A stretch of DNA of 56,092 bases from a virus (lineage: Duplodnaviria > Caudoviricetes). The stretch spans positions 1 to 56,092 of the IMG/VR virus record IMGVR_UViG_3300027839_000010; one strand, written 5' to 3'. The number at the start of each line of letters is the position of its first letter. Positions within the stretch are counted from its first letter, which is position 1. A program made the position numbers and the translations under genes. The notes beneath the pieces were generated by a model, which saw nothing but the letters and a program-made list of their open reading frames with translations, was not told where the DNA came from and made no database searches. This document shows, piece by piece, positions 7,780 to 49,318 of this stretch.

Positions 7780-8015
7780 TAATACATCATCAACAAGACC
7801 TCAAAAATGAGTGGCAAGTTAGGCATAAATTCCTTGCAAGAGCTCATGAAATTAGTAATGAATGGCGTGTTATCAACGGCATGATTACTCTTGATGAGGA
7901 AACAAGTAGAATCATATACAATGATTCTATGCCTCAAGAGTTTCAACCCACTCTTAACAAGGCACACAATTTCAACAAATACATCAAGGAATTAAGAGAG
8001 AGGTATATACAATGA
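7776..8015 (+). CDS. hypothetical protein
   Basis: Coupled by a 4-nt overlap; SD-like GAGGT upstream. Confidence 0.6.
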   Translation: MIIHHQQDLKNEWQVRHKFLARAHEISNEWRVINGMITLDEETSRIIYNDSMPQEFQPTLNKAHNFNKYIKELRERYIQ

Positions 8016-8167
8016 CAGAAAAAGTGAAAGCATACTGTAATATGTGTGGGTTTGATACATATCGTGATAGAGGACAAGATTGTCCTTATCATCAAAAGGT
8101 TATGCAAAGTGAAGAAGGATCTTATCTATTATATGATGAGTTCAACCAAGATGGAGAGGAACTATAA
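8012..8167 (+). CDS. 51-aa Zn-binding micro-protein
   Basis: MTEKVKAYCNMCGFDTYRDRGQDCPYH...; overlaps both neighbours. Confidence 0.55.
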   Translation: MTEKVKAYCNMCGFDTYRDRGQDCPYHQKVMQSEEGSYLLYDEFNQDGEEL

Positions 8168-8526
8168 TGGATCTATCTAATAGTGGTGGATCATTAACCT
8201 TTGGGTATAGGGAACAAATGTATCTCATGGATTTCATGCAAAGCATTGATGACATGAAAAGGTATGTAAAATTCCTCGAAGATTATGATCGGATCAATAT
8301 TGATATGAAAGAACATGATGACGAATCATTCGAGATAGATTTAGATGACACACAATCATTTTGGCATAATAATGATGGCGACCTAATCATGTGCCTGTCA
8401 GGTATTGCATACGAAACTAGATGTTATGCCTACTTTGGTATAAAAACATTTAGCAAGAAAATAGTATTGCTTCAGGTATGTGATTCATCTACTGATCAAC
8501 CATACTATGAGAGGGCAGAAGAATGA
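8167..8526 (+). CDS. acidic hypothetical protein
   Basis: TAATG coupling; GGAGAGG SD. Confidence 0.6.
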   Translation: MDLSNSGGSLTFGYREQMYLMDFMQSIDDMKRYVKFLEDYDRINIDMKEHDDESFEIDLDDTQSFWHNNDGDLIMCLSGIAYETRCYAYFGIKTFSKKIVLLQVCDSSTDQPYYERAEE

Positions 8527-8723
8527 CTATGATATGCCAAACATGTGAAACTAATAAGACATTAGATTTTCAGATGTTAGTCAATAAATGTATAGAAGCA
8601 AAATTCAATGAGAAATACATACCAATCAGGAAATATTTTGAACAAGATATATGTTTTGAATGTTATGAATCAGAAGTTGAGGGTATATCAAGAGTATTAT
8701 ATGAGGTTGAAAATGACCTGTGA
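8523..8723 (+). CDS. small CxxC/CxxC protein
   Basis: CQTC...CFEC; ATGA coupling. Confidence 0.55.
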   Translation: MTMICQTCETNKTLDFQMLVNKCIEAKFNEKYIPIRKYFEQDICFECYESEVEGISRVLYEVENDL

Positions 8724-9050: not shown

Positions 9051-9223
9051 AATCTGAACAAAATATTAGATTAGAATTATATCTAGAACAAGGTAACTTG
9101 GCAGTTGCAGAAGAAGATATACCAAATGATTGGTATGATGAGGGAGATGTTAGGTGTTACGTTGAAAACATTGCAAGAATAGAGGGAAAAATAGAATCTT
9201 ATGAATGGGTGTTAGAACAATGA
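9047..9223 (+). CDS. 58-aa acidic micro-protein
   Basis: Hand translation MKSEQNIRLELYLEQG...; ATGA overlaps at both ends. Confidence 0.55.
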   Translation: MKSEQNIRLELYLEQGNLAVAEEDIPNDWYDEGDVRCYVENIARIEGKIESYEWVLEQ

Positions 9224-9723
9224 AGCAATCAATAACACTATCAGAAGTATATAAATTCATCAATGAATCATACTGTAAGATTAATAAAAATGGATTGTAT
9301 ATAGATTCAATAGTTGATAGATTTAGAGGAGTTAGATATAATAATGGTGGTTTTGCTGAATACATTGAAGAAGATTATCATCATTATTGTGAAACATATT
9401 GTGAGGAATTGTCGCAAGAAAGTAAAGATTTACATGAACAGATAAATATATTAATGAAACTGTTTGAAATTGATTACAATCTAGAAAATGAGTATCAAGA
9501 TTGTATGTGGGAAGAAACAAAAATGAATTGTTCTAATCATAATAAAAATACAATAATGTTATGTCTTTCTAAACATGGAGATTGTAATGATACAAGAACT
9601 ATCTTAAATAAAGAAGCAGAAGAATTTGCACATAAAATGTATGATGAAGATTATGATGTTCAAAATTCTTTGTATCGTGAGTACAAAAAGGAAATGATAT
9701 ATTCAGGAGATTATTATGATTGA
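9220..9723 (+). CDS. acidic hypothetical protein
   Basis: ORF in the track (9205); ATG 9220 overlaps the upstream stop. Confidence 0.6.
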   Translation: MKQSITLSEVYKFINESYCKINKNGLYIDSIVDRFRGVRYNNGGFAEYIEEDYHHYCETYCEELSQESKDLHEQINILMKLFEIDYNLENEYQDCMWEETKMNCSNHNKNTIMLCLSKHGDCNDTRTILNKEAEEFAHKMYDEDYDVQNSLYREYKKEMIYSGDYYD

Positions 9724-10162
9724 TGACAAAACCCTAATGAAACATGTCAGATTATGTAAGGATAGTGTCATGCTTAGACAACAAACTCTTATTTGTAAGC
9801 AACATGATATGGTATTAGAACTACCATGATTAATATAAAATGTGCTGATTGTGATATGGATTGTGAAGTTCCATCTAAAGAACTCATATATTGTGTAAGA
9901 TGTTTCCAAAATCATAGAAATGACATACAAGATGATTACTATTGATAGTATTCGTATGTGATTTATGTAATGCTGAGTTACCTGATGAACTAACTAGATT
10001 AGAAAGACATACTGAATGGCATAGTAAGGCACACATACAACACAGGAATACTACTCAAGGTGTTCCAAACTATAAAAAGAAGGAGGTATGATATAAAATA
10101 TGGAAGAAGAATATGAAGAAAGACCTGAATGGTCATGGATAGATAGAAAGAAATAACACCCT

Positions 10163-10198
10163 TTTCCAACGGTGTTTCGTTGGGAAAGACTTAAATCA
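10163..10198 (+). promoter_or_regulatory. palindromic operator plus BRE/TATA promoter
   Basis: TTTCCAAC-N8-GTTGGGAA overlapping GAAAGACTTAAATCA; same design as 7183-7227. Confidence 0.65.
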
Positions 10199-10214
10199 AA
10201 CCCTTGATGATAGA

Positions 10215-10330
10215 GTTTGTCTTGAGAGATCAAGCAAACGTCAATCAAAGATTGATATGTTACAAGTATCTAACGCTAGTGTGACGGTATGAAGATTCAC
10301 ACAGTTATTCCATACATTGTAACCACATAT
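10215..10330 (+). ncRNA. candidate structured ncRNA or 5' leader
   Basis: Three consecutive stems: GTTTG-T-CTTGA(GAGA)TCAAG-CAAAC; TCAATC(AAA)GATTGA; and a long interrupted stem GTTACAA/TTGTAAC, GTAT/ATAC, TAAC/GTTA, GTGTGA/TCACAC. Confidence 0.45.
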
Positions 10331-10370
10331 ATATATAAAGCCAAGTGCTTTATAAAAGGAGGTAATTAAT

Positions 10371-10625
10371 ATGACATGCGACAATAGATTACTAACTACC
10401 AAAGATGTTAGTACATTGCAAAAGAAAAACCTAGTAAAACTCAGTAGTATATTGAGTGACTCTGATAAAATACAAGCAAGTAAATTTGCTGTATTATTAT
10501 TAGATGTTGATGGCGAAATGTTTAGAACAGGAAACCAACTAGGACAATTAGTTCCACAAGAATCCACTATCGTAAGAGATAGAACAGGACAGATTGTGGG
10601 TATTCCAACAGTATCTGGTGGCTAA
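10371..10625 (+). CDS. ubiquitin-like beta-grasp protein (SAMP/MoaD/ThiS/Urm1-like)
   Basis: 84 aa ending ...ESTIVRDRTGQIVGIPTVSGG-stop, resembling the SAMP/MoaD xxPPVSGG tail. An internal FAVLL-DGE strand is present. GGAGGT SD. Confidence 0.7.
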   Translation: MTCDNRLLTTKDVSTLQKKNLVKLSSILSDSDKIQASKFAVLLLDVDGEMFRTGNQLGQLVPQESTIVRDRTGQIVGIPTVSGG

Positions 10626-10642
10626 CCACCCCTTATATTTTT

Positions 10643-10840
10643 TTGAGTCCACATAGAAAATTCGTTTGCTATCTTTGTTACAAAACTTTCGGTGGAAGAA
10701 AACTAGGATCTTCAATAGGTTCTGGTAAATTTATTGAAAACATCTGTAAGAAATGTACAAAAGAAAATTACGTTTGGGATCACGATCTTAGACCTAATTA
10801 TAGAGCAATCGAAAGACAATTAAAGGAATCACAAGTATAA
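10643..10840 (+). CDS. small Zn-finger protein
   Basis: CYLC...CKKC; abuts the ATPase start. Confidence 0.55.
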   Translation: MSPHRKFVCYLCYKTFGGRKLGSSIGSGKFIENICKKCTKENYVWDHDLRPNYRAIERQLKESQV

Positions 10841-10841
10841 A

Positions 10842-13283
10842 ATGTCCAAAGAAGAATACTATAAACCAACACTAATCGAGCCAAAGGATTTAGATATTGA
10901 AGGAACGGATTATAATGCTGACCTTAATGTTATAAAAGAGGGCAACACTATCAAGGTTACTATGGATCAAGATGTAATGATACAGCGTGTATCACATGAG
11001 ATTTATAGTAATGCTGAATCAGGTATAAGAGAACTCATCAACAATGAGTATCGTGCCTGTCGTCAAGCAAGAGATAACTATAATGCCAAGCCTAGAATAG
11101 AGATAACTATTGATGCACGTACTAGAGAACTAACCATAGAGGGTATTGATTCTCTTGGTATATCAGTTCGTGTGTTTGATAAAGTTCTTAGACGTCTAGG
11201 TGTATCAGGTAATGTTGATGGTGGTAAAGAGATTGGTCAGTTTGGTATGGGATTCGCAGCTTATACTACACTTTCAGAATTGATTACTGTCGAAACATAT
11301 AGTAGAGAGGACAACCAAGAGTTTGCTTTCTTAGGAGATAGAGGTATTGATTTCAAGATACTTCCTAAACCTGAACGAGAAACATTTGGAACTAAGATAC
11401 TATTAACCTGTAAAGAGAGTGTAGATTTCAAAGACATTAGGGATAAGGTAAAAGCATGTGCCTTGTTCTCAACCATACCAACTGTTATCACAATATTAGA
11501 TGACGGTAAAACAGATGATTCTTATAGGTATGATAACGATCTTTCAATAGGAACAGAAGTTCTACCTACATATAGTTCAGGAAAAGATTGGTGTATCTCA
11601 GAATATCGAGAGAAAGTTCCACAACAATATACTCATTTAGATGAATCCACTAGAGGATTATGTGATCATGGTTTTGCAGTAGGTTTTTACAAAGAAGTTC
11701 ACATCAACAATGATGACTACGAGTTCTTTGGTATTATATCTATTAATAAGAACGGATCATTAATGAGTTTAGAGGGTGGTAATAGATATGATTCAGGGGA
11801 TAACCATGCGTTGTTAGTGAACACACCTATACAATCAAGCATAAAACCAAAAGGTAAATGGACAGTATGGTATCTTAATGTAAAGAACGAAAGAGATTAT
11901 GTTCCAACAGCAGATAGAGATAGATTAAAAGATGAATCATCTGCCAAAATTAATATGGTATTAGGTATAGAATTACAAGAAAGATTCACAGGCACAGGTC
12001 TTGCGATAAATAGTATTGCAGATTTCAATGCTTCAATCAATAAACCTGTGTTGAAAAACCTTTGGAACTTTACTGAACTTATGAATAGTAAGGAATACAT
12101 TAGCAGTAAGAGAGTAATGGATATATTAGATAAACGATACCCAACTATTAATCAAAGACGATTAGTCATGAGTGATATGATTTCCAGCAACAATACAATA
12201 GTTGTATTGAAAAGTCTTAGAGCAGATATGATGTCAAGATTAACTGGATCGTTAGGTAAGAAAAAGTCACTTACATTTATCAGGTGGCGACCAATAGATG
12301 TGTATGGAGATGATAGTCTTGAAACTGTAATAGCATTGATGAATGAATGTAATGTAGTATGGGGAGAACAATATCTGAAAGACAATAAGGTCAAGGGTAT
12401 TAAATCTACTAACCTTGCTAAATCTGTTGCAGAAGAAGCAGGTTGTGTATTATATCACAAAGGAAACAACAGATATTCTAGTGTCTTTGGAACTGAAACA
12501 AGATACTATGTAGAGAAATATTCTACTACTGTTGGAGAGGTTAATGAACAAGCAGATTTGAAAGACAATACAAACCATAGAAATAATATCATGCAGGTTA
12601 CCAAAGAAGATTGGCATGAGTTCTATGAAAAAACATTGTATAATCATAGTGGTATTGGATTCTGTATTATGAAACCTCGTAAAGGTATTAGTGATAACAT
12701 TGAATGTTACACAGATTACAAGGAAGCATACAAGACAAGAAAGTTCCTAACATTAGGAAGTGAAAGGAAAACAATAAAGGAATTGTTCCCTGAAGATAAT
12801 GGTAAAATAAACAATGGATTTGAAGATGGTGTAATACAACTTGTAGTATGTCCTAAGAAACATGCTGAAACAATATCTGAACTATTTAAACCAGAAGATA
12901 TACAATTCAAAGAAACTTATAACAACAATTCTGTGAATGTAATATTCTGTAATAGTAATAAGGAATTGATATGTCTTACAACATACATTAATCAAACATA
13001 TAAAAATTCATATACTATATGTACAAGCCATGCTAGTACATTTAAAAAGTTGTTTGATAAAGATAGTAACTGTGGAAATACCTTAATGACAAGTTCTAAA
13101 GAAACTGATTGGCAACAAGTTATAAAGATGGAAAACTTTAGAAGATCAATTCCTGACAGTATGTATCAGTTGTTTTTGAACGCTGTTAATAATGAATCAG
13201 ATAGAGGACAGGAATTTATGCAATCCATATATGATTATGGAGATGAGCAAAGATTAGCAGGAGATAAATTTGACAAGCCTTGA
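10842..13283 (+). CDS. Hsp90/MORC-type GHKL ATPase (T4 rIIA-like architecture)
   Basis: IYSNAESGIRELINN (N-box), IGQFGMGF (G2), FGTKI (G3) and YVPTADRDRL (middle-domain Arg loop), followed by a long unrecognised C-terminus. Confidence 0.8.
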   Translation: MSKEEYYKPTLIEPKDLDIEGTDYNADLNVIKEGNTIKVTMDQDVMIQRVSHEIYSNAESGIRELINNEYRACRQARDNYNAKPRIEITIDARTRELTIEGIDSLGISVRVFDKVLRRLGVSGNVDGGKEIGQFGMGFAAYTTLSELITVETYSREDNQEFAFLGDRGIDFKILPKPERETFGTKILLTCKESVDFKDIRDKVKACALFSTIPTVITILDDGKTDDSYRYDNDLSIGTEVLPTYSSGKDWCISEYREKVPQQYTHLDESTRGLCDHGFAVGFYKEVHINNDDYEFFGIISINKNGSLMSLEGGNRYDSGDNHALLVNTPIQSSIKPKGKWTVWYLNVKNERDYVPTADRDRLKDESSAKINMVLGIELQERFTGTGLAINSIADFNASINKPVLKNLWNFTELMNSKEYISSKRVMDILDKRYPTINQRRLVMSDMISSNNTIVVLKSLRADMMSRLTGSLGKKKSLTFIRWRPIDVYGDDSLETVIALMNECNVVWGEQYLKDNKVKGIKSTNLAKSVAEEAGCVLYHKGNNRYSSVFGTETRYYVEKYSTTVGEVNEQADLKDNTNHRNNIMQVTKEDWHEFYEKTLYNHSGIGFCIMKPRKGISDNIECYTDYKEAYKTRKFLTLGSERKTIKELFPEDNGKINNGFEDGVIQLVVCPKKHAETISELFKPEDIQFKETYNNNSVNVIFCNSNKELICLTTYINQTYKNSYTICTSHASTFKKLFDKDSNCGNTLMTSSKETDWQQVIKMENFRRSIPDSMYQLFLNAVNNESDRGQEFMQSIYDYGDEQRLAGDKFDKP

Positions 13284-13392
13284 GAAAACAATAACATATT
13301 ACAGATGTAACTACTGTAATAATCTAAGGATTCATTGGTCAGATGAACAAACCGATACGCATTTATGTAAGCCTTGTTATGAATCAACATGA
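13270..13392 (+). CDS. 40-aa Zn-finger micro-protein (paralogue A)
   Basis: MTSLEKTITYYRCNYCNNLRIHWSDEQTDTHLCKPCYEST. Confidence 0.6.
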   Translation: MTSLEKTITYYRCNYCNNLRIHWSDEQTDTHLCKPCYEST

Positions 13393-13541
13393 CTAGATAC
13401 GAACACACCATTGTTATGATCAGATGTAATATATGTGATAGCCCAAGAATACATTGGTCAGATAAACAAGATGATTTAGATTTGTGTAAGAAATGTTATT
13501 CAGAACGTTGGGATAAAAAAGTGCGTGGAGATGAATCATGA
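13389..13541 (+). CDS. 50-aa Zn-finger micro-protein (paralogue B)
   Basis: MTRYEHTIVMIRCNICDSPRIHWSDKQDDLDLCKKCYSERW...; ATGA coupling. Confidence 0.6.
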   Translation: MTRYEHTIVMIRCNICDSPRIHWSDKQDDLDLCKKCYSERWDKKVRGDES

Positions 13542-13705
13542 ATAGAAAAGAAATACATTATGTGCAAGAGGCATTTCGTGAATTGATTAAGAATATAGAC
13601 GAACAACTTAAGGTTAAATTTTTATGTGAAGATGAAAGTGTATATCTTACAGGTGTTCTTCAAGGTTATCAACATGGATATGAGTTAGTGAGGAAATTAA
13701 AATGA
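13538..13705 (+). CDS. 55-aa hypothetical protein
   Basis: Open frame with ATGA overlaps at both ends. Confidence 0.5.
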   Translation: MNRKEIHYVQEAFRELIKNIDEQLKVKFLCEDESVYLTGVLQGYQHGYELVRKLK

Positions 13706-14391
13706 AAGTTTCATTCTTAGATGAACGAGATGGATTGTATATTATTATGATCGAGGGTAAAGTCAAGACCATAGTAAGAGATGCCTACTCACAACTCAAG
13801 TATAAAACATATAATGGTAACAGAATTTTCTATGATTTCGGAGATGGTTTAAAGATACAGGAAACTTATGATGATAGAATCTTTAACTGTTACATAGGAG
13901 AGGCAGTAATTAATATCAGAAATGGTAAGAAGATTGCCGAGTATATCATAGATGAAAACAAATCAGGCTATGAATTATTCGTCAAAGAACATTACCTTGA
14001 ACAGCACAGAACTGAACTATTAGATAAGATCATTGATACATATAATAATAGAGTGGTCAAAGTTAAAGATGGTTATGTGGTTGATGACATATTCAAGGTA
14101 GATAACAAAGGAACAAGTTATTGTAAATCTGGTGTTGTAAAATTACCTAGTGCAAAACATGGTAATTGGAAATTCCTTTGCACAGTAGCACAAGGAAATA
14201 TAAGAAAGATGTCAATAGATAGTGAAGTTGGTTTGCTAGAATTAGATACAACATGTATGACTGTACTAGCAAAGATTGGATTCTTCTGTAATCCAAACGT
14301 TCATGATAAAGTATTCATGAATCAACTACCACAGAAAATACAAAAATTACTTGTCGAACAAGACAAGGTAAAAGGAGGTAATTTAATATGA
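13702..14391 (+). CDS. hypothetical protein with an FLCTV...VLAK...D..F..QL motif
   Basis: 229 aa. The C-terminal pattern recalls, from memory only, the domain found C-terminal to DUF4132. Confidence 0.65.
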   Translation: MKVSFLDERDGLYIIMIEGKVKTIVRDAYSQLKYKTYNGNRIFYDFGDGLKIQETYDDRIFNCYIGEAVINIRNGKKIAEYIIDENKSGYELFVKEHYLEQHRTELLDKIIDTYNNRVVKVKDGYVVDDIFKVDNKGTSYCKSGVVKLPSAKHGNWKFLCTVAQGNIRKMSIDSEVGLLELDTTCMTVLAKIGFFCNPNVHDKVFMNQLPQKIQKLLVEQDKVKGGNLI

Positions 14392-21488: not shown

Positions 21489-22109
21489 TCATGAACGTCT
21501 AAATCCTATATGTCCGTTTATGGTTTTTCTTTCGCCTTTAGTGACAGGTTTAACCCTGTGCCACATATTAGATGGTATTATAACTAGAGTATTTTTTTTG
21601 GGAATTATTACCAAGTCAGCTAATGGTTCAGATACATGTGTAATATCCCCATAATCTATATCATTTATAAATGATAGTTCTAATTCTCCACCTTCAAAAT
21701 CATCATTTAGATAATAAATATAATTAGCTATCCTATGTGAAGTTAGAGTTGAACCTGAATCAATATGCCATTTAAATCCTGCACCTTTTTTATATACTGT
21801 ATATTGACAGTCTGAATAAGTCGATGATGGTATAAGTTTTAATAATAATTCTATGACTGGAATTTTATTATATACCGACTCTACAAACATATTAGAATCT
21901 ATTATTCTTAATATATCAGAATTAATTAATGTTCTATCATAAAATTCATTAATATATACTCTAGAAAAAGATGCCATTGGTGTTCCGTTATTATATTCAA
22001 TACCCTCATCTTTTAAAAATGGATTTAATCTTAACAACTCTTTATCGATAAGAGATATTTTATCATTAGTTAAAAAATTATCTATTTTTATTATATCTCT
22101 TTTAATCAT
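21489..22109 (-). CDS. 2OG-Fe(II) oxygenase (prolyl-4-hydroxylase-like)
   Basis: WHID (HxD), YLNDDFEGGEL and WHRVKPVTKGERKT. Confidence 0.9.
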   Translation of the reverse strand: MIKRDIIKIDNFLTNDKISLIDKELLRLNPFLKDEGIEYNNGTPMASFSRVYINEFYDRTLINSDILRIIDSNMFVESVYNKIPVIELLLKLIPSSTYSDCQYTVYKKGAGFKWHIDSGSTLTSHRIANYIYYLNDDFEGGELELSFINDIDYGDITHVSEPLADLVIIPKKNTLVIIPSNMWHRVKPVTKGERKTINGHIGFRRS

Positions 22110-23140
22110 TCAGGAACGTCTATTCCTTTAGCGTTTAAGGAAAATTGTATGTCTTGAGTAGGATCTTCAGGACTATCAACCATTCTAGCAATTCTTTTCT
22201 TGCCTGATTTCTTAAAGTAGATTCTGTAAGTAGAAGCATGTCCTACAACATTTCCACCAATCGGCTTGATAGGATCTCCAAACATTATACTTGGATCAGT
22301 CTGCACTTGATTGGTAAACAATATCACGCATGAGAAATAGAATGTTATATTTTTTAAGTGTGTCATAAGTCTAGCAATTTGATTCTGTCTAGCGGCTAGT
22401 GTTCCTCTGCCTAGATACTCTTCACGGAACTGTCCTATCGCTCCATCAAGAACTATAAGTTTAGGTCTATCATCTAGCATTAACTTTGTCAAATTGTTGA
22501 CAGTTCCCATCAAGTTCTCAGTGTTGGGTGTGTATAAGTAAGTAATATTATCAAGTAAGTCTATTGCTGTCTCTTCATCTGGAACAAGTTCTCTTGCCAA
22601 GAGAATTTCAACAAGTCGTTTTGGTTTGAATGTATCTTCACAGTCAATCCAAATTACCTTGTCATTCTTTGCTATAGTCTCTGCTGTTAGACTGTAACAA
22701 AACTGTGTCTTACCTGATCCAAATTCTCCATAAATTTCATAGAGTGATTCAGGCTTAAGTCCACCACCAAACATTGCATCAATGTCTGGAACGTTGATCT
22801 TGAGCATTTCATAATTCTGTTGATATCTCATAAGTTCTGATACTTTCATATTTGTTTTTCTAATGTAACCTTTACTCTCTAACATTGTCTTTGCTTTGTA
22901 AACCCATTCATCTGCTTTCTCTTTAGTTGCTCCTGTTAATTGTTGAATCTCATAAGATCCTCTTACACATAAATCATAAAGTGTTGATACTCCAAATGCC
23001 ATAAGTTTCTTTTCTGTCACAGCACCAAGTCCATCTAATTGTTTTACAGAATAATCTAAAGTCTCTTCGATAGCACTTCCAACTCCTGACTGTATTGATT
23101 CTTCAACCTCTTTAAATACAGCATCAATTTCTTCAGTCAT
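22106..23140 (-). CDS. radA: DNA repair/recombination protein RadA
   Basis: N-terminal HhH domain, Walker A GEFGSGKTQ, IDCEDTFKPKRL, GRGTLAARQ, PIGGNVVGHASTYRI and RMVDSP. Confidence 0.95.
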   Translation of the reverse strand: MTEEIDAVFKEVEESIQSGVGSAIEETLDYSVKQLDGLGAVTEKKLMAFGVSTLYDLCVRGSYEIQQLTGATKEKADEWVYKAKTMLESKGYIRKTNMKVSELMRYQQNYEMLKINVPDIDAMFGGGLKPESLYEIYGEFGSGKTQFCYSLTAETIAKNDKVIWIDCEDTFKPKRLVEILLARELVPDEETAIDLLDNITYLYTPNTENLMGTVNNLTKLMLDDRPKLIVLDGAIGQFREEYLGRGTLAARQNQIARLMTHLKNITFYFSCVILFTNQVQTDPSIMFGDPIKPIGGNVVGHASTYRIYFKKSGKKRIARMVDSPEDPTQDIQFSLNAKGIDVPE

Positions 23141-23181: not shown

Positions 23182-25146
23182 TCACACAGTCTTTTCCCAA
23201 CTACCATCTTTGTTCTGTTTGATCTGACATTCCTTTACCATGTTGTTCCACATCTTCTCTGCTGAACTTGCATCAAACTTTGCGTGTTCTGACAATGCGT
23301 TAATATAATCTCTATACATTAACTTCTTTTCTATCCCTGCTACATTATCCCATGTCTGTTTTGCTACATAGTCTTTTGAAGAGTTCTCTGTTATCATGTG
23401 TTGTGATGTTCCTTCCCCTTTGTCTAAGTCTATTCTAAGTGAACGATAACTTGACTTTAACAACTCGGTTACTGCCAACACATCATCTTCATCAACTTCG
23501 GACTTTAACAAAAGTTTGGCTCTTGCCATTGAAAACCTGACCAATGCTTCAAGTTGTCTCACTCCCACTGTGATTGATTCTGATGTTGATTTACTTCTCA
23601 TGTTGTTGTAGACAGAGATCAGTTTCAAATGTGTGGACTTTGACAAAGTCGGCTTCAACTGTCTTGCATAGTTCAAGTAAGCCATAAGTTTCTCTTCTGA
23701 CATACCTGTGTTTTCATATACAGTATTGTATGATGAAAGTATATGTTGTGCCTTGTTAGTATCATCTTTTGAATTAACCACATCTACCAACAACCAAATG
23801 AAATCAAACCTTGTCAAGAGTGGAGGTGGAAGATTCAAATTTTCTGCCAAGTTTCTCTCCAAGTCGTATTTTCCATAGATTGGATTGGCAGCTGCCATGA
23901 CTGAGGTCTGAGCAGGTAGTGTTAAGTTGATACCTGCCTTTGCAATAGATACTGTTTGCTGTTCCATTGCTTCATGCATTGCACTTCTATCAGATGGATT
24001 CATCTTATCAAACTCGTCTATCATTGCATGACCACCTGAACATAATGCCATTACCCCTGCCTGTGCAACCTTGCGACCGTTAGGTAATTCTACTATGCCT
24101 ATTGTTAATCCTGCGGCTGATGCTCCTCTACCTGATGTGAATATTGATTTTTGTGTAAGTCGTCTTGAGGCTTTGAGTAGTTCTGACTTTGCCATGCTTG
24201 GATCTCCTACTAGTAGTTGGTTTATGTCTCCTCTTTTTCTTGTTTTTACCCCCCCTACCAACTGCAATAGTATACTAAGTTTGATGTCTTTGTACAAATC
24301 GTCAGCGTAAATCTCTGGAGCAAATGAATCAACTAACTTGTTGATGAACTTACCGCCATCTGATGTGAGTTGTTTTTTGTAATCCTGTATCTCAGTATCA
24401 TTTGGTAGAAGTGTATCACACAAGTCCAAGTCTTCCATTGATATCAACTGTATCACAATATCATTCTCCTCATCTTTAGTCACTATTGATTTGAATATAC
24501 CTGTGACTCTTTTCTTCTGACCAACAAACACTCTTCCTATATGACTACCATATATCTTTGCTGTGAATATAACAGGGGAATTGTTTAATGCCTGTTCTAG
24601 TGGTTCCTGAATTAAAACGGTTTGAATATACTCTGTTTTAGTTCTATTCATATCAGATTCCATTAATTGTTTTTTACAAGTTGGATTAGAACAATATCCT
24701 TTTTGTATTTTTTTGTAAAAGTCTGCAACTAACTTCACTTCATTGTAGCATTTTGGACATACTACAAAAGTCTCTATTATATGAGATTTTCTTTCATCCA
24801 TGCCTATAACTTCACAAACAAATTGTATTGGACTGTTCTCATGTTTTGGAGATAGGTCATGTAACAACACACTTTCATCAACTGTAAGTTCTACAGTTAG
24901 TTTTTGAAACTCGAATGCAATATCAATTCCTGGGAATGCCTGTTGCTTTATTTTTATAATGGCATTCTTTAGTTCCTGTGCAAATATCTCACTGTTGTTA
25001 ATGAACAAGTCAACAACTCCTGACTCAGAGGCATTGAATCTGAATACACTTGTAGGTGTTAGATTGTCTATTATATCCAAATATCTTGGAGTGAATAGAT
25101 AATCTTTCAATGCATCATGTAATGCAGAATTTGTGTGAGTTACCAT
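23182..25146 (-). CDS. mcm: MCM replicative helicase
   Basis: Zn finger CPKC...CSNPTC, RGDINQLLVGDPSMAKS, IDEFDKM, HEAMEQQTVSIAKAG and LLTRFD. Confidence 0.95.
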   Translation of the reverse strand: MVTHTNSALHDALKDYLFTPRYLDIIDNLTPTSVFRFNASESGVVDLFINNSEIFAQELKNAIIKIKQQAFPGIDIAFEFQKLTVELTVDESVLLHDLSPKHENSPIQFVCEVIGMDERKSHIIETFVVCPKCYNEVKLVADFYKKIQKGYCSNPTCKKQLMESDMNRTKTEYIQTVLIQEPLEQALNNSPVIFTAKIYGSHIGRVFVGQKKRVTGIFKSIVTKDEENDIVIQLISMEDLDLCDTLLPNDTEIQDYKKQLTSDGGKFINKLVDSFAPEIYADDLYKDIKLSILLQLVGGVKTRKRGDINQLLVGDPSMAKSELLKASRRLTQKSIFTSGRGASAAGLTIGIVELPNGRKVAQAGVMALCSGGHAMIDEFDKMNPSDRSAMHEAMEQQTVSIAKAGINLTLPAQTSVMAAANPIYGKYDLERNLAENLNLPPPLLTRFDFIWLLVDVVNSKDDTNKAQHILSSYNTVYENTGMSEEKLMAYLNYARQLKPTLSKSTHLKLISVYNNMRSKSTSESITVGVRQLEALVRFSMARAKLLLKSEVDEDDVLAVTELLKSSYRSLRIDLDKGEGTSQHMITENSSKDYVAKQTWDNVAGIEKKLMYRDYINALSEHAKFDASSAEKMWNNMVKECQIKQNKDGSWEKTV

Positions 25147-26711: not shown

Positions 26712-27512
26712 ATGTTCAGCAAAAAAGTAACTATTCAGTTACAAAAACAAGATGACATAATTCATCTTGAGCCGTTAAGCGATATTCATGTAGGTCATGC
26801 AGGTTTTGATGAAGCACTCTACAAGAGTAGAATTAAAGCTATAACGAGAGATAATAATAGATACACCTTATTTATGGGAGACCAGTTAGATGCAATATCA
26901 GTATATGATAAAAGATTCAATCCTGATATGTCAATAGAACATGATATTGATAACCAAAGAAAGACTTGGCAAACACTAACACAGCCTTTAATAAACAAAC
27001 ATAAAGATACAGATAATGAAAAAGTTTGGGGGTTGCTACATGGGAACCACGAATACAAAATTCCTGCAATTACTAGAGCCTATATAGAGAATCATTTTTG
27101 TGAACCAAACGACTTTACATTTTTAGGAAGTCGTGCAATGATAGGATTAGAGATAAAATATAAGAAACAAATTTTACAGCAGTTAACCATACTAGCAATA
27201 CACGGTAGTGGTGGTGGCAAACCTGAAAGAATGTTTGATCAAATGAAGAAGAACAACTATGCAGATATTTTCATCTGTGGTCACTTGCATCAAAAAAGAT
27301 ACCAACCTGAAGTAGCAAACGACTTTGATTTTGAAACAGGTCTAAGATGGGAGAGAGATATTCATCTTATCAATGGTGGTACATTCTGTCATACAGTAGT
27401 AGAGAACACTGATGGATACATGGATAGAAAGAATGAGATAGTATATTCACATCCTGGAACAGCAACATTAAGCATAAACGCTTATCAGGGGAAAATAGTT
27501 GGTCATATCTAA
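26712..27512 (+). CDS. calcineurin-like metallophosphoesterase
   Basis: SDIHVG, GDQLD, GNHE, IHG and GHLH motifs. Confidence 0.9.
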   Translation: MFSKKVTIQLQKQDDIIHLEPLSDIHVGHAGFDEALYKSRIKAITRDNNRYTLFMGDQLDAISVYDKRFNPDMSIEHDIDNQRKTWQTLTQPLINKHKDTDNEKVWGLLHGNHEYKIPAITRAYIENHFCEPNDFTFLGSRAMIGLEIKYKKQILQQLTILAIHGSGGGKPERMFDQMKKNNYADIFICGHLHQKRYQPEVANDFDFETGLRWERDIHLINGGTFCHTVVENTDGYMDRKNEIVYSHPGTATLSINAYQGKIVGHI

Positions 27513-31794: not shown

Positions 31795-31806
31795 CTTATA
31801 AAGATT
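31795..31806 (-). promoter_or_regulatory. late TATA promoter (AATCTTTATAAG)
   Basis: The identical 12-mer also occurs at 37113-37124 and 43750-43761, each 22-23 nt before an ATG. Confidence 0.7.
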
Positions 31807-33202
31807 AACCAAATAAGGTTTCTTGTAGTTTTTTAGACATTGTGATAACGTGCCATTGATCTCCAGATGCTATTGCTTGACAGGCTATGGCTAATGAATC
31901 AGCATGGTCGTCTTTATAATCTGATTTGATTTTCATCAGTTTTGTCTCTGTATATTCTCTTGTTAACATTCCTAATTGTTTTGCTAATTCTTGTCTTCCC
32001 CCGATTTTTATACGTTTTTGTTCAAATAATATTCTCAAGTTCTTGTATATAAGTTCTTTTTCTTTTAATGAAAATACGATACCTCTTACGATTAATGACC
32101 TTTCTTGTAACAGATCAAACAATCCAGCACCTAATCCAGTCTCATCAACATAGATCATCTCTGCATTAAATTTTTCTGCTAATTCCTGCGTTCTACCTGC
32201 AACATCAACTATATTTGATTGACCTTCTTTTTCTTGAAATACTACAAAAATTATATCATTCTCATCTTTAGATATAACAGTGAATACGGTTTCATCCATA
32301 CCACTTCTTGCAACGTCTACTCCAATATAATATTTTACATTACCATATGGCTTACCATCTATCATTGCATCCTGTAAAAGATTCTGTGGGAAAAGTGCAT
32401 TACCTATTTCTAAGAACTCTCCTAATACTTCCAATGCATAACTTTCTCTAGTTTGATTTTCTAAGAATTTAATATAATCTGGATCTTTTGCAATCATTGG
32501 GTTTTCAGTAGATTTTACATGGAACTGTGTCCATTGACCATCTGATGAAACAGGTTTTCCGTTAAGTGTCTTTGAATTTTGACAAGCACTGTAAAAATAT
32601 CCCATCATGGAAAACGGTGTAGATGTTAACCATACCTTTGCTCTTGTTGCGGCTCCTGCTGGAAACAATGCGGTAAGAATATCTTCTTTGATAAATGAAC
32701 ATTCGTCCACTATGATTACATGTGGGGAATAACCTCTTAATCCAGTACCTGTCTCTCCAGTTGCTCTTGTTACAATCTTTGTAGTTCCTTTGTCATCAAG
32801 CCATCTTAACCACATTTCTGTTTGTGTATTTCTTACTATGTAATCTCCAAGAATATCACTTCCTATTACTAATTCTCTTATTCTATCATACATGATGCTA
32901 GCCTGGTTTTGTGTAGGGGCGACAATCAAAATAGTACATTCTCTATTAACAGTCTCAGATAACATAGGTGCAAAGAAAGCAAAATGTATAGCTTTGACGG
33001 CAGTTGACATGGTTTTACCCACCTGTCTACCGCTTCTATATACTATGAATCTATCAAGACAGTCAACATATTTCTTATTATATGGAAATAGTTTATGATT
33101 TAAAAATACGTCAGAAAATACTGAAGGTTTTTGAGCACACTCTACAAACGTTTTGACAAAATCTTCACGTTTACCAATGTCTTCCTCACTTATTCGAGCC
33201 AT
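31805..33202 (-). CDS. terL: terminase large subunit
   Basis: Walker A SGRQVGKT, APTQNQA, Walker B VIIVDE, LTSTP; nuclease motifs IGVDVARSGMD, VDETGLG and DDHADSLA. Confidence 0.95.
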   Translation of the reverse strand: MARISEEDIGKREDFVKTFVECAQKPSVFSDVFLNHKLFPYNKKYVDCLDRFIVYRSGRQVGKTMSTAVKAIHFAFFAPMLSETVNRECTILIVAPTQNQASIMYDRIRELVIGSDILGDYIVRNTQTEMWLRWLDDKGTTKIVTRATGETGTGLRGYSPHVIIVDECSFIKEDILTALFPAGAATRAKVWLTSTPFSMMGYFYSACQNSKTLNGKPVSSDGQWTQFHVKSTENPMIAKDPDYIKFLENQTRESYALEVLGEFLEIGNALFPQNLLQDAMIDGKPYGNVKYYIGVDVARSGMDETVFTVISKDENDIIFVVFQEKEGQSNIVDVAGRTQELAEKFNAEMIYVDETGLGAGLFDLLQERSLIVRGIVFSLKEKELIYKNLRILFEQKRIKIGGRQELAKQLGMLTREYTETKLMKIKSDYKDDHADSLAIACQAIASGDQWHVITMSKKLQETLFG

Positions 33203-33796: not shown

Positions 33797-34582
33797 ATGA
33801 AGTATATTGCCATAATAGTTATATTTATGGTTTTATTTATGAACATACCTATACATGCTGAAATTGAGTCAAATAGTAGATATGATACATTAAAATTAAA
33901 ACATGTTACTAATCCTAATGTTTGTTTATTTGAAGTAAATCCTGAGTTGTATGATGATTGGGAGGGGTTGAGAAATATAACAATATCTGCAATAGAAGAA
34001 TGGATAATAAAATTAGAATATGCTTATCCTAATGGAGATTGGAGTGTTCCTATAGAAACAATATCTTGGGAAGATCATAAAACTGCAAGTGCATTAGATT
34101 ATCCTCAATGTAATATTATGATAAATTATGACAAGTCTTCAAATAGTAAAACATTAGGAAACACAGGTTTAAATTTTAATCAGTCTTGGCATAAATTTAT
34201 GTTCATTAATATATTTTTAGAAAGTCAAAAGAATATAACTAAAATTGTTATAGGTAGTAATATGTCTAATTCTACAATTAACATGATACAACAAAGTTAT
34301 CCTTTATCAGAAAATACAATAAAAAATATCATATTACATGAATTTGGGCATGGTTTAGGTTTAGCACATTTTAATACAAATAGGTCAATGATAGATTATA
34401 CACAATCTGTAATGACACCAACAATAAAACCATTTGATGAAAATCAGTTTTTATCTGTCACATATATAGATTTAGTCATGATTGGTAAAATATATGGAGA
34501 AAATGGATGGAATAAACCATCACCAGTATTTCATATTAAGGGATGTCATATATCAGATAGTTATATTTTTAGATGTTTTTAA
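33797..34582 (+). CDS. secreted matrixin-like (M10) metalloprotease
   Basis: Signal peptide; HEFGHGLGLAH (HExxHxxGxxH); Met-turn SVM. Confidence 0.85.
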   Translation: MKYIAIIVIFMVLFMNIPIHAEIESNSRYDTLKLKHVTNPNVCLFEVNPELYDDWEGLRNITISAIEEWIIKLEYAYPNGDWSVPIETISWEDHKTASALDYPQCNIMINYDKSSNSKTLGNTGLNFNQSWHKFMFINIFLESQKNITKIVIGSNMSNSTINMIQQSYPLSENTIKNIILHEFGHGLGLAHFNTNRSMIDYTQSVMTPTIKPFDENQFLSVTYIDLVMIGKIYGENGWNKPSPVFHIKGCHISDSYIFRCF

Positions 34583-38654: not shown

Positions 38655-39941
38655 TTATCTGACCACATCTAATCCCCTAAACAACGCCCACCATCCATCT
38701 ATCCCGTAAGGATTCTCCTCTACATATACATGGTTAAGAAATTTTAAATGGGTGTGGTTTTGTTTATAATATTCTAATAAATCTGCACCTATACCATTTT
38801 GTAATAATCCTGATTTACTTCTATATTCTTTCCAATACTCTGTATCAAGTTTCTTATTGAAAGCAAAATGTATGAATATAAAATCTCTTATTGTATCAAG
38901 ATAATTATTCACAAATATATTATATTTTTTTATTAGATTATATTGATTTTTACCATAAGTAATAATATCTATAATATCTTTAGATAATTTCAAAATTACC
39001 ATAATAGATGATGCTTCTAAAGGTTCTACAAATCCATCTGAGTTACCCAATGTTATTACGTTACCTATCCAATGTTCTTTTAACCTGCCTGATTTAAATT
39101 TAATAATTCTAGAGTTATCTATTGTGATGTCAAGTTTTGATTCTGCTTCTAACTTTGCTTCTTCATCAGTTATATGGTTTGATGAATATACATATCCACA
39201 AGCTGTTTTATCATTATGATCAATCTCCCATAACCACCCATTATTCATTGTGGTTCCTTTTGTATAAGGTCTTATAGAATTACCTAAACGTTTTTGAAAA
39301 AACAAAGCCCTGTCATTTATTAACATATTATTATATGAATACCACTCTGAATTACTGAGGATTGATTTAAACCCTGAACAATCTATGAAGTAATCTGCTT
39401 CATATTTATTATTGAGTAATTGTATTATATTGCCATCTTTTTTAATATCTGTTATTTCTTCTGAAATTATTTTAACACCTCTAATCAATAATACTTTTTC
39501 CAAGTAATCTAAGAATAAAGAATTTTCTATATGATATGCAGTTGACTCTGGATTAGGGTGTGCATTTATTTTCTCAATCATATATTTAGATAACTTACTG
39601 TTTCCATAATTACCACCCTTGAAATTAAATCCATTTGGTAGGTTACTTTTATAATCTATCACATCAAATGCATAGTCGAATGTGTAATGAAATGGTGTAT
39701 AACCAAAGTCAAGTTCTATACCATATTTTGTTATAGGTCTAACATAAAAATTAAATTCATCCATATTAATTCCACAGTGATCTCTTAATGTTTCAATAAA
39801 ACTACCTACTGTACTTTCTCCTACACCTATTGTTGATATATTAGGACTCTTAATTATTGTGATATTATAATCAGTTTTATTGCTTAACATTAATGCAGAT
39901 AAATAACCTGCTGTTCCTCCACCGACTATTATTATATTCAT
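38655..39941 (-). CDS. flavin-dependent tryptophan-halogenase-family protein
   Basis: IIIVGGGTAG, IGVGEST, TKYGI, FIDCSGF, GWLWEI and GFVEPLEAS. ATG 39941 overlaps the upstream stop. Confidence 0.9.
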   Translation of the reverse strand: MNIIIVGGGTAGYLSALMLSNKTDYNITIIKSPNISTIGVGESTVGSFIETLRDHCGINMDEFNFYVRPITKYGIELDFGYTPFHYTFDYAFDVIDYKSNLPNGFNFKGGNYGNSKLSKYMIEKINAHPNPESTAYHIENSLFLDYLEKVLLIRGVKIISEEITDIKKDGNIIQLLNNKYEADYFIDCSGFKSILSNSEWYSYNNMLINDRALFFQKRLGNSIRPYTKGTTMNNGWLWEIDHNDKTACGYVYSSNHITDEEAKLEAESKLDITIDNSRIIKFKSGRLKEHWIGNVITLGNSDGFVEPLEASSIMVILKLSKDIIDIITYGKNQYNLIKKYNIFVNNYLDTIRDFIFIHFAFNKKLDTEYWKEYRSKSGLLQNGIGADLLEYYKQNHTHLKFLNHVYVEENPYGIDGWWALFRGLDVVR

Positions 39942-40321
39942 ACATACTCTAAAATATCCCACTTTAATAAATCTTCGTTCCATAAATAATTTACATCAGT
40001 TCTAGGATAGTCTACTGGTGCTTCCCAATTACAAGTAGTTTCATTTAATATCCATGAATCATAAGGTTTAGGAGCAATAAAAGCATCTAATACTGAATCA
40101 TAACTGAAACCTATACCAGCAAAGTTTTTTCTTAAAGCCTTTGTTTGATCTTCACTAGGGGTATGTGTATTAGGAATATGATGAATACCTAAATGTGTAT
40201 TATATGATGTTTGTATCCAATTTTCAAGGTTTCCCCAATTACCATTATCTAATACTTCTTGATCAATAACTAAAACTCTAATCACTATATTGTTTTCATC
40301 AATTTCTGCAAAATGACTCAT
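39938..40321 (-). CDS. tail-fibre-associated protein of the type common in aquatic phages
   Basis: MSHFAEID, WIQTSYNT, LRKNFAGIG, DAFIAPKPYDSW and WEAP. Confidence 0.7.
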   Translation of the reverse strand: MSHFAEIDENNIVIRVLVIDQEVLDNGNWGNLENWIQTSYNTHLGIHHIPNTHTPSEDQTKALRKNFAGIGFSYDSVLDAFIAPKPYDSWILNETTCNWEAPVDYPRTDVNYLWNEDLLKWDILEYV

Positions 40322-48325: not shown

Positions 48326-49318
48326 TTAAGGTACTGTTGCAACACTATTGCTTGCTGTAACCTTAACATTTCTCATTTGGAATGTCAAATCTTCAAATAC
48401 TGGTTCATTTGGAACTATTGATAAACTATGTTCTGATAGACCAACACCTGCAAATTCCACTAATATTGTTTTTTCACTTGTTCCTGTAAGACCATTAGTA
48501 AATACAATAGTTAATGTTGCTAACTCAGTTCTATCAAATACTCTTTGTAATTGTGTTTTATCAATAAATGATGCATTAAATTTACCAGTCATTTCAAATA
48601 ATTTTCTGAATCCACCTACTGCATTTGCACTTCCTTGTTCATACAATAATTCAGTATTAGATGTAAATGAAATGTCAAAGTCTTGAACTTCTGCAATTAG
48701 ATTTGCGGATCTATTTGGATGATTGGTTGTACTGTTTGGAATCTGCAATAATGCATGAGAGAATGTATATGGGAAATCAACACCGTCTGCTATTGGAGAT
48801 CCTATACTGGTTGTAATAGTGTCAGTTATTCCATAAATGAAATCTAATGCACCAGTAACTGTTTCTCCTATTGATGATTTAATGTTTAATGAAGAGAATA
48901 AAGTTCCTTTCAAATGTCTAACAACATCAGTAGATGTTTTTGTATCAAATCCTACTTCTATATCAAAAGATTTTGGGGATGCTATTCCTGTATTGTCTGC
49001 TGTTAAGTTTCCGCTACCAGAATCCCATATATGATTAAAATCACTACTTGATCCAGATGTATCAACTCCACCTAGAATTGCATCAAATACCCAGGGGGAT
49101 GATAAAACAAAGTCTACTGATCCGCTTCCTTCATTCTTTCCATATGCATATGATGCTACTTCTATGTTATTTAGTTGTGTTAATGCTATTTGATTGTTCT
49201 TAAATGATAATGAGTTTATTGCTTGTTGTAATCCAAATGGTCTTGTTGCTGTAGCTCCCCCACCAAAAGATGACTCTTCGCCATATTTTAAAGTACCATG
49301 AGCACCTGTTCGAACCAT
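48326..49318 (-). CDS. major tail tube protein
   Basis: LKYGEESSFG, SFDIEVG, GTLFSSLNI and FEMTGKF; position in the module. Confidence 0.8.
   Translation of the reverse strand: MVRTGAHGTLKYGEESSFGGGATATRPFGLQQAINSLSFKNNQIALTQLNNIEVASYAYGKNEGSGSVDFVLSSPWVFDAILGGVDTSGSSSDFNHIWDSGSGNLTADNTGIASPKSFDIEVGFDTKTSTDVVRHLKGTLFSSLNIKSSIGETVTGALDFIYGITDTITTSIGSPIADGVDFPYTFSHALLQIPNSTTNHPNRSANLIAEVQDFDISFTSNTELLYEQGSANAVGGFRKLFEMTGKFNASFIDKTQLQRVFDRTELATLTIVFTNGLTGTSEKTILVEFAGVGLSEHSLSIVPNEPVFEDLTFQMRNVKVTASNSVATVP

Follow-up and report, generated by a model that had tools for sequence, protein, structure and literature searches.

Small ubiquitin-like proteins (Ubls) of the ThiS/MoaD family, among them the SAMPs and the Ubl-E1-TBP proteins, end in Gly-Gly after a tail of the form (I/L)PAVxGG, with proline at position −6 and valine at position −4. 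Ubl precursors with C-terminal extensions are represented by QbsE/QbsD, CysO/Mec and ubiquitin fusion precursors. Ubl-type proteins are already known from prokaryotic mobile elements, and Ubl-type proteins and JAB peptidases take part in virus-host conflict or virion assembly in the Bil/Bub defence operons and in the lambda tail assembly proteins I and K, with their Ubl and JAB domain. Here we describe a protein of 84 amino acids (aa) with a similar tail, encoded at positions 10371-10625 of the virus record IMGVR_UViG_3300027839_000010. The record, which is called as a virus and is estimated to be about 88% complete, was analysed over its full 56,092 bases and is referred to below as the window. 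The Bil/Bub systems and the lambda proteins have their own E1/E2 enzymes or are tail-assembly genes, whereas the gene described here (the GG gene) is accompanied by genes for a GHKL ATPase and for a protein of 229 aa.

The GG protein is small, like the ThiS/MoaD-family Ubls, and matches them in its tail pattern and Gly-Gly end. In contrast to them, it has no detectable similarity beyond the last 17-19 residues and no beta-grasp match, and its gene lies beside the GHKL ATPase gene rather than E1, MoaE, threonine synthase or tRNA-thiolation genes. Proteins that end in Gly-Gly but do not have a beta-grasp fold have been proposed before as Ubl analogues: in the part of Makarova and Koonin (2010, PMC2948915) considered here, this is the halobacterial family arCOG06308, which has a TBP-like fold and is said to occur frequently in fusion with, or linked to, genes for E1 or MoaD. 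What the present protein shares with arCOG06308, as that part of the article presents it, is the concept alone, i.e. a small archaeal protein with a conserved Gly-Gly end, an apparently non-beta-grasp fold and an inferred Ubl-like role. Unlike arCOG06308, it has no E1 linkage and no TBP-like match, and its carriers are viruses and conjugative elements of Nitrososphaeria.

The 84-aa protein belongs to a conserved and previously undescribed family (the GG family) that so far occurs only in genomes of Nitrososphaeria and in their mobile elements. The reading that we favour, and to which we give about an even chance, is that it mimics the tail of a Ubl on an unrecognised fold and is cleaved and, we infer, perhaps activated through E1 by Ubl enzymes of the host type. 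Should the host Ubl-E1 or a JAMM peptidase read this tail, a mobile element would be tapping the archaeal Ubl and sulfur-carrier machinery in organisms important to the global nitrogen cycle, the hosts of the carriers being ammonia-oxidising archaea. A separate evolutionary question is whether the same seven-residue tail sits on an unrelated body (convergent mimicry) or on one that has diverged beyond recognition. In the literature we found no description of a Ubl-type protein encoded by an archaeal virus or conjugative element, although supplementary tables could mention one, and none of the GG family, its tail identity with the host Ubl-E1, the cargo fusions or the ATPase trio presented below (supplements were outside this search).

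Conservation of the C-terminal Gly-Gly

The GG gene and the signals around it are as follows.

10358-10363 (+): GGAGGT Shine-Dalgarno-like hexamer, 7 nucleotides (nt) 5' of the ATG, read from the sequence
10371-10625 (+): GG-tail protein, 84 aa, with C-terminus ...VRDRTGQIVGIPTVSGG-stop, from the list of open reading frames (ORFs) and the homologues
10606-10622 (+): codons of the C-terminal tail, (I)PTVSGG, which corresponds to LPAVAGG in the host Ubl, from alignments A1/A2, the host Ubl-E1 tails and the pattern census
10638-10644 (+): run of seven T after the stop, a possible archaeal terminator judging from the sequence, overlapping the TTG start of the next small ORF

An earlier note on this DNA, made from its letters alone, had proposed a virus-encoded Ubl with a strong Shine-Dalgarno sequence, a free Gly-Gly end and a tail of the MoaD/SAMP type. 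The ORF itself is confirmed by its coordinates and translation and by the GGAGGT 7 nt before the ATG, and its C-terminus, IVGIPTVSGG, is directly followed by the stop codon TAA at 10623-10625. A/T-rich, TATA-like stretches noted by eye at 10328-10341 and 10349-10357 overlap the Shine-Dalgarno region, and a promoter role for the 10328-10357 region alongside the Shine-Dalgarno-like hexamer is possible.

We searched for homologues in two protein sets. An exhaustive phmmer search over 1.84 billion representatives returned 14 matches, of which eight are small (57-108 aa) and six long. A profile search of a set of 5.8 billion proteins returned 58 proteins. Some of these are attributed in the database to Nitrososphaera viennensis and to Candidatus Nitrososphaera gargensis, so that work with cultured hosts is feasible. 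Gly-Gly stands at the very end of 59 of the 61 small homologues, and the remaining two are fragments (P0065, which is without its C-terminus, and P0067, a 39-aa piece). The Gly-Gly end is therefore not a product of chance, and its conservation among homologues, which the earlier note had put forward as a check on its proposal, extends to all complete members. Five residues, P62, G77, V81, G83 and G84, are invariant in an alignment of nine sequences, the last 17 residues have the consensus VRDxTGxxVG(I/L)PAVxGG, and the conserved core comprises about 65 residues. The 84-aa ORF has no match in Pfam (E <= 1), PHROGs, NCBIfam, PADLOC or the PDB sequences, and searches with the ORF, the family alignment or the protein P0060 (Pfam, PHROGs, NCBIfam, PADLOC, PDB sequences and ESM Atlas) gave nothing informative.

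Matches to the family are carried by 51 of 401 sampled genomes of the host class. This sample includes incomplete genomes, and the 51 include two unpublished ones (G328 and G366) on which no claim rests. By our own count, about a dozen of the matching genomes have the type that ends in Gly-Gly and about three dozen have a single-copy, GG-less membrane-protein type that is considered below. No longer (fused) relatives were found in the 5.8-billion-protein set, a negative that is in itself weak evidence.

The six long phmmer matches (P0005, P0007, P0008, P0010, P0011 and P0013) were set aside. Two of them, P0008 and P0010, are RCC1-type repeat proteins whose matches are confined to a hairpin at residues 27-67. 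This central hairpin, FAVLLLDVDGEMFRTGNQLGQL (approximately positions 10449-10571), resembles an RCC1-type repeat blade with E values down to 9e-8, and we judge the likeness to be convergent and not homologous.

The host Ubl-E1 tail and the fold of the GG protein

In the hosts, a ThiS-family Ubl is translated in one frame with a ThiF/MoeB-type E1, to which it is fused N-terminally.

L048 1177-2508 (-) and L052 1174-2511 (-): host Ubl-E1 fusion ORFs, 443-445 aa

These two ORFs, of 443 and 445 aa, read ...DGDxVYILPAVAGG(A/S)xxLSxxEL... and run on into the E1. The architecture is the same as that of the Ubl-E1-TBP fusion of Thaumarchaeota in the part of Makarova and Koonin (2010, PMC2948915) considered here. 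Because the Ubl is N-terminal to the E1, a peptidase would need to cut after the Gly-Gly for the Ubl to act in the usual way. Directly upstream of the Ubl-E1 gene lies a gene for a threonine-synthase-like, pyridoxal phosphate-dependent enzyme (L048 2519-3640 (-); match to a PDB threonine synthase with E 1.8e-67). This arrangement suggests a sulfur-carrier pathway whose Ubl would have to be cut from its own E1.

In all 10 host genomes examined, each of which also has GG-family members, YILPAVAGG closes the Ubl part of the fusion. The last seven residues of the family, (I/L)PAVxGG, repeat this host tail nearly letter for letter, and the GG protein is also like the host Ubl in a preceding (V/L)(R/K)DxxxxV strand and in a Gly-Gly at the domain end that a peptidase must expose. 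The heptapeptide marks the end of the domain in both. We took a census of the pattern [ILMF]PAVxGG in the DNA of five host genomes and found 23 sites, 13 of them in GG-family genes, five in Ubl-E1 genes and five elsewhere, as against three sites for a reversed-pattern control. By these counts the heptapeptide is, in these genomes, nearly private to two families that are otherwise not detectably related. The tail that the earlier note assigned to the MoaD/SAMP type is thus near-identical to that of the E1-linked Ubl of the hosts, from which it may have been copied or on which it may have converged.

The fold is a different matter. None of the tests that we ran, on predicted structures or on sequence profiles, recovered the beta-grasp fold that a ubiquitin-like protein implies, and in this respect the earlier proposal found no support. 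An AlphaFold (AF2) model built from the family alignment (predicted local distance difference test score, pLDDT, 80.8; 37.1 for the model from the single sequence) is mainly beta, with the predicted order of elements strand-helix-strand-strand-strand-strand. Foldseek found no match to this model at E <= 0.001 in PDB or BFVD, no ubiquitin-like entry among the matches listed, and no TBP-like match. At the sequence level, 0 of 42 family members match the Ubl families of Pfam at E <= 10, and the family profile finds nothing among the PDB sequences and nothing in NCBIfam. When the family was aligned by hhalign with the ThiS-family Ubl domains of five host genomes, only the last 17 columns aligned (IVRDsTGxxVGLPAVvGG against lkdgdxvyilpavagg; probability 28.5%, pairwise E 6e-4). 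The trimmed alignment gave 21.8% over 19 columns and global mode gave 3%, whereas two host Ubl groups aligned with each other as a control gave 94% over 35 columns. Since the body is not a recognisable beta-grasp, we read the protein as a Ubl-tail mimic on another or an extremely diverged scaffold.

It might instead be a true homologue, i.e. a very diverged and perhaps reduced beta-grasp Ubl of the ThiS/MoaD family that was captured from the host and, as the earlier note had proposed, either would be used by the host E1 for SAMP-like conjugation, with proteins tagged for the proteasome, or would act as a decoy. The 17-19 C-terminal residues do align with host Ubls, and a low-confidence extended hhalign alignment is colinear through a helix, an hhhVxG strand, a further strand, the last strand and the tail. 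The predicted order of elements is also compatible with a beta-grasp without a clear first hairpin. We nevertheless consider such homology unlikely. Many ubiquitin-fold chains in PDB were available for Foldseek to match, and the Pfam, PDB-profile and global hhalign results are equally unfavourable to it, as is the occurrence of a homologous domain without Gly-Gly in a membrane protein.

Gly-Gly as a domain boundary

In three cellular genomes (G150, G251 and G112) the domain runs on past the Gly-Gly. We counted 12 distinct fused forms, in which unrelated extensions of 6 to about 530 aa begin directly after it, some with zinc-ribbon or SWIM-like motifs as judged by eye. Two of the genomes hold the GG-domain genes in arrays.

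G150:C1 122-170 kb (L030-L032): array of seven GG-domain genes
G251:C2 76-112 kb (L028-L029): array of five GG-domain genes

Seven paralogues in G150 fall within 40 kilobases (kb). The genes of these arrays hardly differ in their N-terminal parts and have C-terminal extensions unrelated to one another, and the arrays further contain two to three GHKL ATPase genes and one gene for the 229-aa protein. From -240 up to the GG codon, most 30-nt bins show a mean pairwise DNA identity of 0.72-0.76 among the G150 paralogues, with the exception of bin -90 (0.56); just past the GG codon the value is 0.30-0.34. Nine of the 12 fused forms, and all 10 host Ubl-E1 fusions examined, have Ser or Ala directly after the Gly-Gly.

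A Prok-JAB gene (68.9 bits, E 5e-19, motif HSHPSGVAYPSETD) lies within the G150 array between two GG-cargo genes, adjoined by an HExxH ArdC-like gene and a gene for the 229-aa protein. Its best named PDB relatives are entries called JAMM1 (E ~2e-6). Each host also has two or three JAB genes at other places in its genome. Extensions after Gly-Gly and a JAMM1-type gene beside the fused copies in G150 recall the JAMM1-SAMP pairs (JAMM1: PDB 5ld9/5lda). They differ from these pairs in that the extensions are long, varied and present in multiple copies, a JAMM gene occurs in one of 13 genomes or records (within the stretches fetched) and cleavage is here a prediction. The ArdC-like label of the neighbouring family (277-359 aa) is tentative, as it comes from a single weak Pfam match (E 0.0052) and an HExxH seen by eye, with nothing in PDB.

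Variable sequence after a Gly-Gly, as in the 12 fused forms, is also what would be expected of a double-glycine leader for export or maturation, of the bacteriocin, NHLP or Nif11 type and cut by a C39 peptidase-ABC transporter, and the ...VAGG end resembles such leaders. We regard this explanation as highly improbable, because nothing follows the Gly-Gly in 59 of the 61 small members and no leader family in Pfam or NCBIfam matches. Peptidase_C39 exceeds the cut-off in only one of five host genomes, with neither match near the module described below. Moreover, extensions of up to about 530 aa with zinc-ribbon or SWIM-like motifs (by eye) are unlike core peptides, and the predicted structure is mainly beta.

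A related domain without Gly-Gly forms the C-terminal end of a multi-pass membrane protein of about 250 aa, which ends in GIPKVSDGFNIW or similar. We confirmed this membrane type in ten loci (L016-L025; e.g. L025 955-1713 (+) and L020 1480-2247 (-)). It has four hydrophobic stretches and a domain of about 65 aa that keeps VRDxxSGSxxGIP and is without the AVxGG tail. It belongs to no Pfam or NCBIfam family. From its charge and hydrophobic stretches, assessed by eye, the C-terminal end is probably cytoplasmic. In L020 and L025 a Cas4-like PD-(D/E)XK gene adjoins the membrane-type gene.

The conserved free Gly-Gly, the host-like tail, the Gly-Gly boundary with its one JAMM gene and the company of the ATPase and the 229-aa protein together lead us to propose that Ubl-type enzymes read the tail of the GG protein. 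The Gly-Gly would be both a processing and a recognition site. Where an extension follows, a JAMM peptidase, encoded by the host or, as in G150, by the element, would cut after it, and the Ubl-E1 fusion of the host presumably depends on a cut of this kind as well. Whether freed in this way or native, the ...PAVxGG carboxyl terminus would then fit the host Ubl-E1, with the outcome that it is adenylated and passed on (by conjugation or thiocarboxylation) or that it occupies the enzyme as a competitor of the host Ubl. The GG protein probably works in concert with the ATPase and the 229-aa protein encoded next to it, soon after the element has entered the cell.

Several observations weigh against this proposal. 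What constantly accompanies the GG gene is a pair of genes for the GHKL ATPase and the 229-aa protein rather than genes for Ubl enzymes, and in the stretches fetched a JAB gene occurs in one of the 13 genomes or records. ThiF (PF00899) and Prok-JAB (PF14464) have no match at E <= 0.1 in any of three viral records, namely that of the window and two related ones, in keeping with the earlier note, which had recognised neither an E1 nor a JAMM protease in the window. An E2 gene is likewise found in none of the three. Host E1 genes are present in all five host genomes searched, but none was found next to the cellular copies of the GG gene, and the host E1 lies far from the modules (in G236, for example, at 1.74 Mb vs 0.81 Mb). 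A host membrane protein carries the domain without Gly-Gly, and the domain thus has a function of its own that does not need it. Finally, the tail could be read by a peptidase alone, without an E1 step; E1 activation, conjugation and cleavage are all predictions from sequence.

The GG domain could accordingly be a cleavable adaptor and nothing else. As an N-terminal module partnered by the Hsp90-like ATPase and the 229-aa protein, it would, for example, dock cargo of the element onto this ATPase, with the Gly-Gly as the site at which a JAMM peptidase releases the cargo and with no involvement of E1, and the free-standing viral form would be an adaptor without cargo. Such an adaptor would account for conserved partners other than E1/E2, for varied cargo fusions whose homology stops at the Gly-Gly, for a JAB gene in the array in which every copy is fused and for a GG-less domain at what appears by eye to be the cytoplasmic end of a host membrane protein, and it is compatible with a model that has no beta-grasp match. 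It is harder to reconcile with the 59 of 61 small members that have no cargo and yet keep the whole PAVxGG tail invariant, as a cleavage site without a substrate is needless. The seven-residue identity with the E1-linked Ubl also suggests a role beyond that of a peptidase site, although one peptidase might recognise both tails. We take this explanation seriously, as the main alternative to the tail mimic, but find it on the whole doubtful.

The three-gene module and its carriers

Downstream of the GG gene, the window encodes a small ORF and the two proteins that accompany the GG protein.

10643-10840 (+): 65-aa CxxC...CxxC zinc-ribbon-like ORF between the GG and ATPase genes, with weak relatives in L001 and L002
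10842-13283 (+): 813-aa protein with an Hsp90-like GHKL (Bergerat-fold) ATPase N-domain at about residues 40-220, second gene of the module
13702-14391 (+): 229-aa protein, third gene of the module, with two small ORFs between the ATPase gene and it

When neighbourhoods were clustered across 13 genomes or records, the GG family and the 229-aa family were present in all 13 and the ATPase in 12. Two other viral contigs and the cellular loci have clear homologues of both the ATPase and the 229-aa protein beside their GG genes. In the viral contigs the ATPase homologues are 45% and 36% identical to that of the window, and the 229-aa homologue in L001 is 59% identical. The GG and ATPase genes are tandem-duplicated as pairs in G251 and G102. 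The 65-aa zinc-ribbon-like ORF is not conserved in the cellular copies of the module. Further small ORFs with paired CxxC, also zinc-ribbon-like and on the + strand, lie at 8012-8167, 8523-8723, 13270-13392 and 13389-13541 of the window.

The 813-aa protein is a GHKL-superfamily ATPase of unassigned subtype. It matches Hsp90 N-domains in PDB with E 4.9e-5 as a single sequence and 6e-7 as a profile, the matches being confined to the N-domains, and its ELxNN...GQFGMGF motifs are most like those of Hsp90. The match to HtpG in NCBIfam scores 37 bits (cut-off 371), that to phrog_23723 has E 6.2e-7 and that to the sacsin ATP-binding domain in NCBIfam is weak (E 0.016). No match was found for the remaining ~600 C-terminal residues, no Pfam family in 14 members, and no full-length match to the Hsp90/HtpG family with its N, middle and C-terminal dimerisation domains. 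With Hsp90/HtpG and the Tiamat/sacsin GHL ATPases, as described in the part of bioRxiv 10.64898/2026.09.30.754977 considered here, the protein has an N-terminal Bergerat-fold ATPase domain in common. It has no match in PADLOC (which covers the Tiamat models if they are in that release). The 'HSP90 chaperone' of the haloviral HGTV-1 shares the N-domain only. We considered its locus as a second instance of the module and rejected it, since the neighbours are unrelated: the 97-aa protein upstream is not GG-ended, and the one downstream, of 224 aa, has no relation to the 229-aa family. For the 229-aa protein itself there was no match in Pfam, NCBIfam, PHROGs, PADLOC, PDB or the Atlas. A prediction of the complex of the GG protein with the 813-aa ATPase (score 0.00, mark 0.32), run without controls, was not used as evidence on whether the two bind.

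The co-occurrence of the three genes, the tandem GG-GHKL duplications and the lack of an E1 in any element raise the question of whether the module is a self-contained modifier system. In such a system the C-terminal glycine of a non-beta-grasp protein with a tail taken from the host Ubl would be activated or ligated by the Hsp90-like GHKL ATPase together with the 229-aa protein, and the host E1 would be uninvolved. GHKL enzymes include phosphotransferases, which agrees with such a role, but we know of no GHKL enzyme that activates a carboxyl end. Inspection by eye of the 229-aa protein revealed no invariant Cys-His pair or recognisable catalytic signature, and shared enzymes of the host are a better explanation for a tail identical with that of the host Ubl. 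An E1-independent system therefore seems quite improbable to us. If it were true, Ubl-like tagging would have a third route next to the Pup ligase and adenylation by E1, one used by viruses and conjugative elements on entering ammonia-oxidising archaea.

Around one cellular copy of the module (L027) lie genes for a tyrosine integrase, a prepilin peptidase and two kinds of ATPase, VirB4/TraC-like and VirD4/TrwB-like. Krupovic et al. (2019, PMC6563490, in the part considered here) describe this set of genes for integrative-conjugative elements of Thaumarchaeota, and the words ubiquitin, GHKL and chaperone are absent from the main text of that article. Given its presence in viral records and in the conjugative context of L027, the trio is cargo common to the tailed viruses and conjugative elements of Nitrososphaeria, and its carriers by gene content are tailed viruses and at least one integrated conjugative element. 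The description of the GG protein as virus-encoded is thus correct in that a virus encodes it but too narrow, because the gene is not virus-specific and is shared with conjugative elements in a three-gene module. With its Hsp90-like ATPase, the trio represents a sizeable piece of dark matter common to viruses and conjugative elements that now has a testable handle.

In the window the GG gene lies in the early/accessory block and not in the tail block. The hallmark genes below identify the source of the window as an archaeal tailed virus.

22106-23140 (-): RadA/Rad51
23182-25146 (-): MCM helicase
31805-33202 (-): large terminase
48326-49318 (-): tail tube protein
53757-55085 (-): prohead protease

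No tRNA genes were found in the window. The whole of the GG ORF is covered by contigs from four metatranscriptome runs of four studies, and three of the four have no differences to the ORF region (X5, 10229-10786; X6, 10232-10693; X8, 10246-10693). These contigs show that the sequence is present in RNA libraries, by which transcription is not proven. In all four libraries the contigs start at 10229-10246, within 18 nt of each other and approximately 125-140 nt 5' of the ATG, and the region upstream (9201-10205) is nearly without cover in these runs. As they are assembled contigs and not reads, no transcript start can be claimed from the common starts.

Three further genes of the window are of separate interest. 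The tail and fibre genes have among them a gene for a 442-aa protein of the flavin-dependent tryptophan-halogenase family (38655-39983 (-); Pfam Trp_halogenase, E 2.5e-80), which is an unusual auxiliary gene for an archaeal virus of this kind. Outside the structural block lie a matrixin-like zinc metallopeptidase domain (33797-34582 (+), E 3.6e-6) and a calcineurin-like phosphoesterase (26712-27512 (+), E 1.5e-4).

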